The notes beneath the pieces were generated by a model. That model was not told where the DNA came from. It searched no databases and was given only the letters and a program-made list of their open reading frames with translations. A stretch of DNA of 64,000 nucleotides, from contig JANNWR010000153.1 of assembly GCA_031408715.1 (NCBI GenBank), positions 3,674-67,673 on the forward strand. Reading direction: 5' to 3'. Below, piece by piece: positions 5,351 through 8,936 of the stretch. Source of the DNA: a bacterium (lineage in GTDB: Bacteria > Eisenbacteria > RBG-16-71-46). The position numbers and the translations under genes were made by a program. Numbering within the stretch: the first letter of the stretch is position 1; every line of letters begins with the position of its first letter.

Positions 5351-6342
5351 GTGCCGTGAAATCCCCGAAGACCGTCGCACTGCTGGCGCTCAAGGTACTC
5401 GTGAGCGTGGCGCTGTTCTGGTGGTTGTTCCACCGCCTGCAGTGGTCGACGATCGCACCCGTGCTCGGCCACGCCGATCCGGCATGGGTGAGCGCGGCCG
5501 CCGTGTTGTTGCTCGCGAGCCACCTGCTCGCCTCGTGGCAGTGGGGCCGCCTGCTCGATGCGGCCGGGATCGACCTGCCGTTCTGGAAGGTCGCGTCCTA
5601 CTACTATGTCGGACTGTTCTTCAACAACTTCCTGCCGGCGAACGTCGGGGGGGACCTGGCGCGCACGCTCGACGCGTCGCGGGCCGGCTCGACGCGTCCC
5701 ACCGCGCTCAGCACCGTGTTGCTCGACCGCCTGATCGGCACGGTGGCGCTCGGCGCGATCGCCGTGTTCACCACGCTGCCGGCGATCGACCACTTCCATC
5801 TGGCCGCCGCGTACGCGGGCGTGGTGGCGTTCTTCGCGCTCGCGGTGCTCATGTTGCGCGCCGTGCTCGAGCCGCGGGTGCTGGCCGCGCTGGAGCGTCT
5901 GCTCGCCCGGGTGGGTCTGGCGCGCATGAGTCCGGCGTTGGACGAGCTGTCCGGGCGCCTGGCGGCGTTTCGCGGGCGGCGCCGGTTGCTGTTCGAGCTG
6001 CTCGGTGTCGCGCTGATCGTCCAGGTCATGCGTATCGGTGTCCATGTCTTGTTCAGCCGCGCACTGGGGCTGCACATCGACACCGCCTACTTCTTCCTTT
6101 TCGTGCCGCTGCTGGCGGTGATAGTCTCCCTGCCCATCTCATTGAATGGCATCGGGGTACGTGAAGGGGCCGGGATCGTGTTGTTCGGCCTCGTGGGGCT
6201 CGACCGCACGAACGCGTTCGCGCTCCAGTTCGGCACGTATCTCGTCGCTTTCGGGGTCAGCTTGATCGGCGGGGTGGTATTCCTGGCGCGAATCCCCAGC
6301 CGCCGGGCCCAATCCCGTCATCCACGGAGGTCCACCGAATGA
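5347..6342 (+). CDS. UPF0104 / LPG-synthase-TM (MprF flippase-domain-like) membrane protein
   Basis: ATG 5347 overlaps the upstream stop (ATGA). The protein is polytopic and hydrophobic. It has the FFNNFLPANVGGDLAR motif typical of this 'flippase-like' family. Confidence 0.7.
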   Translation: MSAVKSPKTVALLALKVLVSVALFWWLFHRLQWSTIAPVLGHADPAWVSAAAVLLLASHLLASWQWGRLLDAAGIDLPFWKVASYYYVGLFFNNFLPANVGGDLARTLDASRAGSTRPTALSTVLLDRLIGTVALGAIAVFTTLPAIDHFHLAAAYAGVVAFFALAVLMLRAVLEPRVLAALERLLARVGLARMSPALDELSGRLAAFRGRRRLLFELLGVALIVQVMRIGVHVLFSRALGLHIDTAYFFLFVPLLAVIVSLPISLNGIGVREGAGIVLFGLVGLDRTNAFALQFGTYLVAFGVSLIGGVVFLARIPSRRAQSRHPRRSTE

Positions 6343-8936
6343 TCCCGACCCAGCGCTCTGCGGCGCTGATCTCGGTGTTCGTGCTGCTGTTCGCCGCCAC
6401 CGTCTACTTCCTCACGCTCACGCCGACCGTGCCGTTCTGGGATTCCGGCGAGTTCATCGCGGTCGCCACGATCCTCGGCATCCCGCACCCGCCGGGCACT
6501 CCTTTCTATGTGCTGCTGGCGCGCATCGCGACGCTGGTGCCGTGGGCGAGTATCGCGCAACGCGTCAATGCGCTGTCGGCCGTGGCCGCCGCGCTCACCG
6601 TGTGGCTCACCTACCTGAGCACGCTGCGCTTGATCCGGGTGGCGCAGGGCGACGACCGCAAGCCGTGGCAGGAGTGGGTGGCCGTGCTGGCCGCCGCCGT
6701 CGGTGCGCTCCTGCTCGCGTTCTCGGATGCGTTCTGGGGGAACTCGGTCGAGGCCGAGGTCTACCAGCTCATGAGCCTCGCACAGATCCTCGTGTTCTGG
6801 CTCGGGCTCAAGTGGTGGGAGGCGCACGGCAGCAAGCCCAGCGTCGGTCCGCTGCTGGTCGCGACCTACGTCATGTGGCTGTGCGTCGGGCTGCACCTCG
6901 GCGTCGGCATCATGGGCCTGCCGCTGTTCGTGTTCCTGCTGTTCGTCGATCGCACCATCGCGCTGCTGTTCCTGATGCCGTTCCTGTCGCTGCTGCGCGT
7001 TCCGGCCGGCCTCGAGAAGATGGCCGGTGCGGTCATCATGCTGAGCCTGGCGACCGCCGCCGGCATGGTGTGGAAGAAGAAGCTCAACGGCTGGGTCGTG
7101 CTGGGCGCGGCCGCACTCGCGCTGCCCGGGCTGCAGGCCTCGTTCTCGGACGCCAACTTCTCGATGCAGACGGCGATCCTGACGACGCTCGCGGTCATCG
7201 GGCCGATGGTGTGGCTGGCGCGCGGTCACCGCGAGGGGCGCGTGCTGTTGCTGTCGCTGTTCCTCATGGTGGCGGGCTATTCGACGCATCTCTACCTGCC
7301 GATCCGGGCCGCACAGCACCCGGCCGTGAACGAGGGCGCGCCTGCGACGTGGGACAAGATGCGCGACCTCCTGGAGCGCAAGCAGTACGGCGAGATGAAC
7401 CCGCTCGTGCGGCGAGCGCCCTTGATGGCACAGCTCGACAAGGAGTTCTGGCGCTACTTCCAGCGCCAGTGGCCGCTGTTCCCGACGAACCGGCTGTGGG
7501 GCGCGCTGCTGCCCATCGCACTCGGCCTGGCGGGCGGCTTCTGGCAGTTCCGCCGTGAGAAGAAGTCGTTCCTGCTGACGTTCACATTCCTCGGGCTCTC
7601 GACCGTTGGCATGATCGTGTTCTTGAACTTCACGGACCACGAGGTGCGCGACCGCGACTACTTCTTCCAGAGCGGATTCCACGCGTACTCGATGTGGATC
7701 GGACTGGGCGTGGCGTGGCTCATCCACTGGGTGCGCGAGTCGTTCGAGGGCAAGGACGCGCAGCGCATGGCCACGCTCGGCATCTCGGCGTTGCTCGGTA
7801 CCATGCCGGTGCTGCTCTTGGTGAACCTGTATCACACGCACGATCGCAGCCAGAACTACATCGCCCGCGACTACGCCTACAACATGCTGGCGAACCTGAA
7901 GCCGAACTCGTTCATGTTCACGAACGGCGACAACGACACGTTCCCGCTGTGGTACATCCAGCAGGTCGAGGGCTTCCGCAAGGACGTCCGCATCGTGAAC
8001 CTGTCGCTGCTCAACACCGACTGGTACATCCGCCAGCTGCGTGACGAAGAGCCCAAGGTGCCGATCACGCTCGACGACCGCACCATCGACATGCTCGGCG
8101 CCGGAGCGTTCCAGGACGAGAAGGGCAACATCACCTACACGAACGAGTTCATGGTCCACCATGTCCTCGAGCAGGCGCGCCGCGATTCCGGCTGGGTCAA
8201 GCAGCCGTACTTCGCAGTCACCGTGCCGCAGGACTTCGGCTACGGCGGTTCGTTCCGTCAGGAGGGCATCGTGCAGCAGGTCATGCACGACAGCACGCTC
8301 GCCGGCTTCGACGAGCCCGCGACGCACAAGGCGCTCTACGAGACCTACCAGTATCGCGGCCTGTTCAACCCCGACGGCTCGCTGGAGCCCAAGGTGTACA
8401 AGGATGACAACGCCCAGAACCTGTCGCGCAACTACGCCTTCGCGCACATGCAGCTGGCGCAGCATTACCGCCGCATCAAGGACTACCCCAAGGCCATCGC
8501 CGAGATGGAGCGCGTCACGCGCATGTTCCCCGACTGGGTCGAGATCCAGGCCCCGCTGGGCGGCATCTACCTGGCCGCGGGCGACAGTGCGAAGGCATGG
8601 GAGTTCTACGACGGACTGACCAAGCGCGCGCCGGGCAGCGCCGAGGCGCACTACTACCGGGGCGCCGCGCTCGGCTATCGCGGCAAGCCCGAGGAGGCGG
8701 TCGAGGAGTTCCGCCTGAGCCGCAAGCTCGACCCGAACTACGGCTATCCCTACTTCGACGAGTTCGGCACGCTGTGGGACATGGGACGGCGTGAGGAGGC
8801 GGTGCAGGTCCTGCAACTCTGGGTCGACCGCCATCCCAACGACGCTCAAGCCGCAGCCCAGTTGCAGGACGCGCGCGCCCGGCTCGGCATGGGCTCCGGC
8901 GGCTTCGGCTCTCCACCCGTGACCCGGCCCCGCTGA
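6339..8936 (+). CDS. DUF2723 (TMEM260-type) GT-C-like polytopic membrane protein with C-terminal TPR domain
   Basis: ATG 6339 overlaps the upstream stop. The N-terminus [28 protein letters not shown] is the hallmark DUF2723 start. There are many hydrophobic segments. The C-terminal ~250 aa are TPR-like ([34 protein letters not shown]). Confidence 0.75.
   Translation: [865 protein letters not shown]

Follow-up and report, generated by a model that had tools for sequence, protein, structure and literature searches.

GT-C enzymes that O-mannosylate proteins have been studied in detail in eukaryotes and Actinobacteria; of the TMEM260 branch, only the human enzyme, which acts on IPT domains, has been characterised, its function in 2023 and its structure in 2026. 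Cryo-electron microscopy of human TMEM260 revealed a GT-C glycosyltransferase 'wrist', a Rossmann-like 'palm' and 'fingers' made of tetratricopeptide repeats (TPRs); the enzyme moves a single mannose from dolichyl-phosphate mannose (Dol-P-Man), and its donor pocket touches one sugar (bioRxiv 10.64898/2026.03.17.711096). Six residues are essential: D52 and H67 in the sugar-recognition motif, R264 and Y267 in the donor-loading loop, R355 in transmembrane helix 10, which contacts the donor sugar, and D441 in the palm, the catalytic base acting on peptide threonine (bioRxiv 10.64898/2026.03.17.711096). The 2023 paper merely mentions 'distant homologs in bacteria'. In the general O-glycosylation system of Bacteroidota, according to a 2025 review, the conserved reducing-end sugar is mannose, homologues of the eukaryotic O-mannosylation enzymes should be sought, and neither the transferase nor the core-glycan flippase nor the core machinery has yet been discovered. 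Here we analyze a bacterial TMEM260 relative of 865 amino acids (aa), hereafter the target, and the genes around it, in a stretch of 64,000 nucleotides from an Eisenbacteria contig (JANNWR010000153.1); this whole stretch is called the window.

Family membership, catalytic residues and topology of the target

The target is almost certainly a TMEM260-family GT-C glycosyltransferase that faces the periplasm. The first-pass annotation of the window had described an 865-aa polytopic protein with the hallmark of DUF2723, and in these points it was right. The open reading frame (ORF) is real (6339-8936, +), and its GC content at third codon positions (GC3) is 0.93, the level of genuine genes in this window of 68% GC. 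The hallmark motif occupies residues 33-57, and PF11028 (TMEM260_N, TMEM260-like, formerly DUF2723) matches residues 35-205 with an E-value of 1.1e-39 and 136.5 bits against a cutoff of 24.2. The second family domain, PF28495 (TMEM260_2), is assigned to the target and to all 120 close homologues in a precomputed Pfam list that was not rescored. A 910-aa ORF antisense to the target and longer than it (6318-9050, -) was rejected as a high-GC composition artefact; such antisense ORFs recur in other high-GC loci, even clustering together.

When the part of the target outside the TPRs (residues 1-690) was searched against the Protein Data Bank (PDB), human TMEM260 (9rql/9rqm/9rqn) was the sole sequence match (E 1.3e-20), in two alignable blocks that cover the membrane core and the palm. 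With a profile of 34 phylum-diverse sequences (mean identity 27%), the match to human TMEM260 reached E 6.7e-39, and its second block ran on across the last membrane helices into the beginning of the luminal domain. A search of a protein collection with the human TMEM260 fragment from the PDB alignment returned only fragments of at most 265 aa. In Foldseek, whose PDB set ends on 2026-04-08 and does not hold the TMEM260 entries 9RQL-9RQN, the best full-length matches of the structural model were the GT-C enzymes AglB, PglB and ArnT. The GT-C and DUF2723 similarity expected in the first-pass annotation is thus found at the level of both TMEM260 Pfam domains, the human protein and the fold. PMT/POMT (glycosyltransferase family GT39) and TMTC (GT105) identities were considered and rejected: neither PMT (PF02366) nor PMT_2, MIR, PMT_4TMC or DUF1736 matched the target in Pfam at E ≤ 0.01, the PDB sequence search gave no Pmt1 or Pmt2 match, and the TPRs that are present accompany a membrane domain of the TMEM260 type. 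Because PMT, PMT_2, MIR and DUF1736 are absent, the target is assigned to the TMEM260 family and not to the PMTs or TMTCs.

Four of the six essential human residues have counterparts in the target. Human D52 corresponds to D35 in the motif WDSGEF, H67 to H50 in PHPPG, R355, by profile alignment, to R439 in RDRDY, and D441, which stands in an R-G-D motif, to D531 in the N-G-D of the palm stretch TNGDNDTF. All four, including the acidic first-loop residue whose conservation the first-pass annotation had suggested checking, are invariant in 53 close and 34 phylum-diverse homologues, and TNGDNDTF is invariant in these 34 and in 37 phylum-diverse sequences. Residues R323, P335, R347, Q349 and Y350 of the long loop 321-389 are also invariant across phyla, and R347-x-x-Y350 has the same R-x-x-Y spacing as human R264/Y267. 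We infer from this that the loop may be the equivalent of the human donor-loading loop, and it is kept as a candidate only, since it could not be aligned to the human one.

The AlphaFold2 (AF2) model of the target, built from a 53-sequence alignment, has a predicted local distance difference test score (pLDDT) of 84.6, falling to about 54 in the loop 321-389, and a predicted template modelling score of 0.81. In the model the protein divides into a helical membrane core (residues 3-501), an alpha/beta domain (508-670) and ten TPR-type helices (690-848). Hydropathy and the model together indicate approximately 13-15 membrane helices in residues 3-501, and the Pfam families TPR_14, TPR_2 and TPR_19 match at about residues 700-840. 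A TPR-like module of about 250 aa facing the periplasm had been proposed for the end of the protein; the repeats and their predicted location are retained, their length shrinks to about 160 aa, and they are preceded by the Rossmann-like domain, which the first-pass annotation lacks. Mean column identity is highest in the palm (0.58), lower in the core (0.46) and lowest in the TPRs (0.35).

The short loops of the target fit the positive-inside rule cleanly. The loop of residues 28-54, which carries D35, E38 and H50, contains no lysine or arginine and is predicted to lie outside, while the loops predicted inside contain three to five such residues each: four in residues 95-113, three in 246-250 (KKKLN), three in 295-301 (RGHREGR) and five in 404-410 (FRREKKS). 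The acidic first loop is thus predicted to be periplasmic, which agrees with the first-pass annotation. The D35 loop, the loop 321-389, the R439 loop, the palm and the TPRs are all predicted to be periplasmic and the N-terminus cytoplasmic, in agreement with the luminal placing of the homologous parts in the human structure.

The operon of the target and its conservation across phyla

The genes for the GT4 enzyme, the flippase-like protein, the target, the epimerase, the ArnC-like synthase and the HddC/HddA-like proteins form a translationally coupled operon (Table 1); the methyltransferase gene upstream of GT4 is counted with the local operon. ATGA overlaps join GT4 to the flippase-like gene (5347-5350) and the latter to the target (6339-6342), and a second chain of such overlaps runs from the epimerase through the ArnC-like and nucleotidyltransferase genes to the GHMP kinase. 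The ArnC-like enzyme, two genes downstream of the target, was overlooked in the first-pass annotation. Its NCBIfam matches, to ArnC (1.2e-58) and to PgfS (2.6e-43), are under the cutoff; in the PDB it matches ArnC (9bhc) over the full length at 4.9e-56 and GtrB at 5.8e-34. The MprF-type protein passes the cutoff of TIGR00374 (flippase-like domain) with 58 bits against 43.2 and takes the place of a small flippase of the GtrA or ArnE/F type, none of which was found. A scan of 3.0-22.9 kb for promoters and terminators is uninformative about the operon limits, because the sites were no commoner than in shuffled sequence.

Table 1. Coordinates of the target gene, its parts and its neighbours in the window
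Feature	Coordinates	Strand	Evidence
TMEM260/DUF2723-family GT-C glycosyltransferase with Rossmann-like and TPR domains, 865 aa (target)	6339..8936	+	Pfam, PDB search, AF2
Target: first periplasmic loop, sugar-recognition motif, codons D35-H50 (WDSGEF...PHPPG)	6441..6488	+	aligned to human D52, H67
Target: long flexible periplasmic loop, residues 321-389 (IR323...NE..P.T...R347-K-Q349-Y350-G), candidate donor-loading loop	7299..7505	+	conservation, AF2
Target: codon R439 in RDRDY motif, counterpart of human R355	7653..7655	+	profile alignment to 9rql
Target: periplasmic Rossmann-like 'palm', residues 508-670 (160-180 aa), with TNGD531NDTFPLWY	7860..8348	+	AF2 alternating strands/helices
Target: TPR domain, residues 690-848 (~160 aa), 10 helices, candidate acceptor-binding 'fingers'	8406..8882	+	Pfam, AF2
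Class I S-adenosylmethionine (SAM)-dependent methyltransferase	3312..4223	+	Methyltransf_11 1.2e-19; neighbourhood cluster c5
GT4 (GT-B) glycosyltransferase	4238..5350	+	Glycos_transf_1 3.9e-38
MprF-type flippase-like membrane protein, candidate lipid-linked-sugar flippase	5347..6342	+	LPG_synthase_TM (PF03706) 5.8e-38
NAD-dependent sugar-nucleotide epimerase/dehydratase	8947..9897	+	Pfam Epimerase 1.6e-56; no NCBIfam equivalog cutoff reached
ArnC/GtrB/PgfS-like polyprenyl-phosphate GT2 with C-terminal transmembrane helices, candidate donor synthase	9894..10844	+	NCBIfam, PDB
Sugar-1-phosphate nucleotidyltransferase (mannose-1-phosphate guanylyltransferase/HddC-like)	10841..11530	+	NF052502 3.9e-37, HddC 3.8e-28, both under cutoff
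GHMP sugar kinase, HddA-like	11527..12558	+	HddA 1.9e-84 full length, 284 bits vs cutoff 600
YfhO/PgfM-like membrane protein, 825 aa, probably second GT-C	22776..25253	+	Pfam YfhO 1.2e-08; weak PgfM1/PgfM2 matches
DPM1-like soluble GT2, candidate polyprenyl-phosphate-mannose (or hexose) synthase	25253..25969	+	PDB, NCBIfam

This operon is part of a same-strand glycan cluster of about 30 kb (approximately 3.3-33.4 kb) lying between riboflavin genes and the dcw cell-division cluster and rich in GT2 and GT4 enzymes, with a Wzx-like flippase and an AsnB-like amidotransferase. The first-pass annotation had assigned a Ppm1/DPM1-like synthase to the operon of the target. The gene is indeed DPM1-like: its best solved relative is the Dol-P-Man synthase of Pyrococcus (5mlz, E 5.4e-31, catalytic domain only), and its top NCBIfam matches are AglJ (the best), PpgS and a Dol-P-hexose transferase. 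However, a distance of 16.3 kb with no fewer than 12 genes separates it from the target upstream, and it is coupled to the YfhO-like gene, so that it cannot be assigned to the same operon on this evidence. In Haloferax, AglJ is the enzyme that begins glycan assembly on dolichyl monophosphate.

A scan with one genome per species yielded at least 598 DUF2723 loci, and the neighbourhood counts given here refer to the best 80, from at least 12 phyla. These neighbourhoods were searched with the neighbour proteins of the window and by assumption-free clustering of all neighbourhood proteins, using GC3-filtered ORFs and ortholog thresholds of at least 200 bits for GT4 and at least 250 bits for the DPM1-like protein. 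The 80 loci include Eisenbacteria, Latescibacterota, KSB1, Zixibacteria, Calditrichota, Gemmatimonadota, Ignavibacteria, Chlorobi, Cloacimonadota, Marinimicrobia, WOR-3 and Fibrobacterota, metagenome-assembled genomes (MAGs) labelled Bacteroidota, Cytophagia or Chitinophagaceae, and one MAG of Actinomycetota. The family is much larger: when 1.84 billion cluster representatives (50% identity clusters) were searched exhaustively, 15,828 clusters passed E ≤ 1e-3 and 1,289 passed E ≤ 1e-30. The only names carried by close homologues of the target, at 57-99% identity, are those of Candidatus Eisenbacteria MAGs.

Among the conserved neighbours GT4 is the commonest (27 of the 80 loci), usually directly adjacent to DUF2723, followed by the flippase-like gene (23 loci) and the SAM methyltransferase of cluster c5 (16 loci), a recurrent upstream neighbour of GT4 and DUF2723. 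The first-pass annotation had suggested looking for co-occurrence with a polyprenyl-phosphate-sugar synthase, and this is observed: an ArnC-like or DPM1-like synthase is present at 25 loci and at 23 of the 42 closest. The DPM1-like gene occurs at 18 loci in many phyla and in every case shares the strand of DUF2723, following it at a distance of 2.5-8.4 kb; by rough reasoning, only about 0.1% of genomes would have a randomly placed single-copy gene on that strand and no more than 10 kb downstream. Twelve of these 18 loci, from KSB1, Cytophagia-labelled, Calditrichota and Actinomycetota MAGs among others, have neither an ArnC-like nor a YfhO-like gene. The ArnC-like gene occurs at 13 loci and stands directly beside DUF2723, at 4-26 bp, in three of them (L004, L008, L022). 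A flippase-like gene accompanies 14 of the 18 DPM1-like and 10 of the 13 ArnC-like loci. The epimerase was found at ten loci and the HddA/HddC-like genes at only two or three. Wherever the YfhO-like gene was found (L008, L022, L028, L055 and the window), it is directly upstream of the DPM1-like gene.

Several arrangements within and around these loci were observed in passing. In the window, the HddC-like and HddA-like pair (10841-12558) is as in the synthesis of GDP-D-glycero-alpha-D-manno-heptose, with matches under the equivalog cutoffs; no GmhA isomerase or GmhB phosphatase was seen in the window. A 575-aa protein (13611-15338) with weak matches to the LA_3751/LA_3752 putative glycosyltransferase (7.7e-08) and Pfam PMT (0.0074) may be a third GT-C-type membrane transferase of the cluster; its true start is uncertain because ORFs overlap on both sides. 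The segment 22776-28349 resembles a second lipid-sugar glycosylation module, in which the YfhO/PgfM-like and DPM1-like genes are followed by a gene whose product, a secreted beta-propeller protein of 791 aa, has a signal peptide, a type IX C-terminal sorting domain (TIGR04183, 29.5 bits, cutoff 23) and a C-terminus that is PorZ-like at 9e-20, far under the cutoff. The sorting domain implies a type IX secretion system in this Eisenbacteria-like organism. In the dcw cluster, the FtsI-type penicillin-binding protein (36128-38281) bears two PASTA domains (9.8e-18), which are best known from Gram-positive penicillin-binding proteins and kinases.

Among the other loci, the order riboflavin operon, metallophosphoesterase, methyltransferase, GT4, TMEM260-like gene (457-6342 in the window) recurs in L006-L011, L018, L022, L030, L055 and L077 and is kept across Eisenbacteria, Latescibacterota, Zixibacteria and Fibrobacterota, an unusually deep conservation with no evident functional tie to riboflavin. 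Melioribacter and other Ignavibacteria (L081:9004-9642 (-), L042, L049, L052, L068) have a gene for a 212-aa GT2 placed divergently beside the TMEM260-like gene and then a GT9 heptosyltransferase-like gene; this GT2 resembles a generic WcaA/TuaG-type enzyme more than a polyprenyl-phosphate-sugar synthase. Tandem TMEM260-like paralogues of about 880-930 aa each occupy approximately 10.0-15.4 kb of L012, L013, L037 and L056, in KSB1 and Cytophagia-labelled MAGs, and are followed by a flippase-like gene and a gene for a DUF4837 protein. Human TMEM260 was solved as a single chain, so the two copies may represent two acceptor or donor specificities, or a heterodimer. A fusion of about 696 aa between a rhamnosyltransferase-like GT2 and a polyprenyl glycosylphosphotransferase (EPS_sugtrans 5.9e-39; L021:10315-12402, with the same place in L007, L031, L037 and L055) directly follows the DPM1-like gene in many phyla, often behind an RmlD-like reductase, and is absent from the window.

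Proposed function and alternative explanations

The target probably glycosylates exported proteins, because it is a TMEM260 relative with the tested residues intact, whose operon also encodes a lipid-sugar synthase and a flippase. In the mechanism we propose, a GT2 synthase at the cytoplasmic face, be it the ArnC-like one of the operon or the DPM1-like one downstream, would load the sugar of a nucleotide sugar onto undecaprenyl phosphate; the MprF-type flippase encoded just upstream of the target would bring the lipid-linked sugar to the periplasmic leaflet; and the TMEM260-like enzyme would transfer the sugar, with inversion, to serine or threonine hydroxyls of unfolded or extended exported proteins. 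The membrane 'wrist' would bind the polyprenyl-phosphate-linked sugar, positioned by D35, H50 and R439, the palm would hold D531 as the general base, and the TPR 'fingers' would grip, together with the palm, the extended polypeptide. A protein acceptor is favoured because the peptide-gripping architecture and the palm base are retained, the palm being the most conserved domain; this acceptor, like the sugar and the choice of synthase that serves the transferase, is inferred. Mannose is favoured by the human precedent, the conserved donor-contacting residues and the cross-phylum link to a Dol-P-Man-synthase-like GT2, and the transferred sugar is most probably mannose or another manno-configured one. 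A further clue to the sugar is the resemblance of the operon's nucleotidyltransferase and kinase to mannose-1-phosphate guanylyltransferase/HddC and to HddA; the ArnC-like synthase, the epimerase and the HddA/HddC-like genes allow a different, possibly manno-configured, sugar. We regard the full mechanism, comprising a protein acceptor, a polyprenyl-phosphate-sugar donor and a three-component periplasmic system, as evenly balanced between right and wrong, and consider it somewhat less likely than not that the target is specifically a protein O-mannosyltransferase. The O-mannosylation proposed in the first-pass annotation is thus supported in part: it is kept as regards the family, the periplasmic site and the co-occurrence with a synthase, with mannose as a candidate sugar and protein as a candidate acceptor.

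Several observations weigh against this proposal. The human loop with R264 and Y267 is unaligned, lying between the two blocks, and a focused sub-profile of the conserved bacterial loop gave only chance matches in the PDB and did not find TMEM260. There is no conserved asparagine ladder of the human kind in the TPRs of the target family, N698 alone being conserved, and none of the proteins encoded in the window contains the human acceptor sequon. The synthase coupled to the target is ArnC-like, and its characterised relatives load 4-deoxy-4-formamido-L-arabinose (Ara4FN) or glucose, not mannose; the DPM1-like gene, whose start overlaps the YfhO-like stop by 1 nt (TGATG), is coupled to another membrane protein. 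About 55 of the 80 loci, mostly from Ignavibacteria, Chlorobi, Marinimicrobia and Cloacimonadota, have no synthase within 10 kb. Many of these synthase-less loci lack the TPR-homologous tail, and many members of the Bacteroidota/Ignavibacteria type have no Pfam-detectable TPR. The conserved block also holds housekeeping genes (rib operon, recG, valS, purE, accA, lepA/lepB), and since these share the synteny, the linkage may in part be inherited gene order and perhaps not shared function. Finally, literature searches found no functional study or experimental datum for any bacterial TMEM260-family member, in agreement with the first-pass annotation, which had called bacterial DUF2723 proteins functionally uncharacterised; a search on PF11028 matched only unrelated Plasmodium gene identifiers.

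The alternative that survives best is the same chemistry on a non-protein acceptor, such as a periplasmic glycolipid, lipopolysaccharide (LPS) or lipid A, peptidoglycan or an exopolysaccharide, as in enzymes of the ArnT, YfhO, EmbC and GtrC type; the TPR domain would then dock on an export or assembly machine and not on a substrate polypeptide. A glycan or lipid acceptor is possible because the target sits inside a large polysaccharide-type cluster, which would fit such acceptors no less well than a protein and which adjoins the dcw cell-wall cluster. The most constant partners, cytoplasmic GT4, SAM methyltransferase and MprF-type lipid flippase, are typical of glycolipid pathways, the neighbours in Ignavibacteria and Chlorobi are a GT9 heptosyltransferase-like gene of the LPS-core type and an LpxA-like gene, respectively, and the TPR part of the target best resembles PEP-CTERM PrsT, PgaA and pilus-type TPR models, all far under the cutoff. 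However, the counterpart of the human base that acts on peptide threonine, D531, lies in an invariant motif of the most conserved domain, and the full three-domain 'hand' for gripping an extended peptide is retained. Furthermore, no characterised GT-C with a non-protein acceptor has detectable sequence similarity to the target, the PDB search having given TMEM260 only. On balance we consider a non-protein acceptor unlikely.

Alternatively, the target may glycosylate proteins with a sugar other than mannose, for example a heptose, 6-deoxyheptose or pentose, made by the genes of its own operon. In that case the HddA/HddC-like enzymes would make the activated sugar, which the epimerase/dehydratase would alter and the ArnC-like synthase would attach to undecaprenyl phosphate, leaving the DPM1-like enzyme to serve the YfhO-like protein. 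The coupled chain around the target, the close placing of ArnC-like genes beside DUF2723, the strength of the HddA-like match and the constant YfhO-like/DPM1-like pairing agree with this explanation, as does the Pgf system of S. mutans, which joins a PgfS-type GT2 and an epimerase with GT-C proteins and glycosylates adhesins. Against it stand the twelve loci in which the DPM1-like gene is the sole nearby synthase. The donor-contacting residues D35, H50 and R439 are invariant regardless of which synthase is nearby, and HddA/HddC-like genes are rare near DUF2723, so that we rate a non-mannose donor as distinctly improbable. An oligosaccharyltransferase, receiving a flipped lipid-linked glycan built by the DPM1-like/AglJ-like initiator, GT4 and the methyltransferase and transferring it en bloc to protein, would suit the tight partnership of cytoplasmic enzymes with a periplasm-facing transferase, the AglJ match, the GT2-phosphoglycosyltransferase fusion behind many DPM1-like genes and the 'OTase for the core glycan' postulated in the 2025 Bacteroidota review, and is nevertheless very improbable, given that the only characterised family member, human TMEM260, transfers one mannose from a pocket contacting one sugar and that no priming phosphoglycosyltransferase was found in the cluster of the window.

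Whatever its acceptor, the target does not define a new family, because databases already transfer the TMEM260 or O-mannosyltransferase name by homology: NCBI and JGI label relatives 'protein O-mannosyl-transferase family' or 'TMEM260 (protein O-mannosyltransferase)/TPR'. It is an uncharacterised member of this named family, and what is new is its context of a flippase, two synthases, GT4 and a methyltransferase. The bacterial branch is very large, keeps the tested catalytic residues and has a conserved synthase-flippase-transferase gene set, which together provide a concrete, testable model of a new bacterial periplasmic glycosylation pathway and tractable bacterial enzymes for studying the mechanism of TMEM260, a human disease gene (SHDRA syndrome).

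Comparison with known systems

Human TMEM260 and the target share the GT-C core, the Rossmann-like domain and the C-terminal TPRs, both Pfam domains of the family (PF11028, PF28495), the four essential residues, the location of the active site and C-terminal domains away from the cytoplasm, and the gradient of conservation from palm through core to TPR. They differ in that identity is only about 25-30% and confined to the two alignable blocks, the membrane core of the target has about 500 residues with extra helices against 415 in the human enzyme, and its TPR domain has ten helices against five, with no evident asparagine ladder; the donor-loading loop cannot be aligned. The carrier would be undecaprenyl and not dolichyl phosphate, the IPT-type sequon is absent from the proteins of the window, and the operon of the target encodes a flippase and a synthase.

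The enzymes of the PMT/POMT (GT39) and TMTC1-4 (GT105) families and the actinobacterial Pmt plus Ppm1 system have in common with the target the GT-C fold, an acidic residue in the first extracytoplasmic loop, a polyprenyl-phosphate-mannose donor (proposed here) and a linked DPM1/Ppm1-like synthase, and TMTCs too have C-terminal TPRs. In contrast to PMTs and TMTCs, which lack the Rossmann-like palm, the target carries its predicted catalytic base in this domain.

In gene organization the locus resembles the three-component periplasmic glycosylation systems GtrA/GtrB/GtrC, ArnC/ArnEF/ArnT, CsbB/GtcA/YfhO and PgfS/PgfE/PgfM1/PgfM2 of S. mutans, in all of which a GT2 synthase, a flippase and a GT-C protein are encoded together. 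An ArnC/GtrB/PgfS-like GT2 with C-terminal transmembrane helices stands in the operon of the target, and an epimerase accompanies the synthase, as in the Pgf and Arn systems. Unlike in the Gtr and Arn types, the flippase is an MprF-type LPG_synthase_TM protein and not a small protein of the GtrA or ArnEF type, the GT-C belongs to the TMEM260 family and not to GtrC, ArnT or YfhO, and a conserved GT4 and methyltransferase are added.

The remaining comparison is with the general O-glycosylation of Bacteroidota, which uses the motif D-(S/T)-(A/I/L/V/M/T). A profile search centred on Bacteroidota returned sequences of the Ignavibacteria/Melioribacter type, the cluster names of ten divergent representatives were Calditrichota, Krumholzibacteria, Gemmatimonadota and marine metagenome, and no homologue from Bacteroides, Flavobacterium, Porphyromonas or Tannerella was among the matches listed in this search or among the ten names. 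The TMEM260-like family is nonetheless a lead for the Bacteroidota transferase, because it is very large and widely spread in the FCB (Fibrobacterota-Chlorobiota-Bacteroidota) superphylum, where the O-mannose-initiating transferase of Bacteroidota is missing. If its acceptors are proteins and its sugar is mannose, it is an obvious candidate for this enzyme, sought since the system was described. That the family is the initiating transferase of general protein O-glycosylation in the FCB superphylum, in a unit that could comprise the transferase, the DPM1-like lipid-mannose synthase, the MprF-type flippase, GT4 and the methyltransferase, seems to us rather unlikely; were it true, the ancestry of eukaryotic TMEM260 would lie in, or be shared with, a protein O-mannosylation system that is widespread in bacteria. 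The two systems have the FCB superphylum in common, the Bacteroidota glycan has mannose at its reducing end, and among the conserved neighbours of the TMEM260-like family are a flippase, a methyltransferase, an RmlD-like reductase and two GT2 enzymes, one Dol-P-Man-synthase-like and the other rhamnosyltransferase-like.

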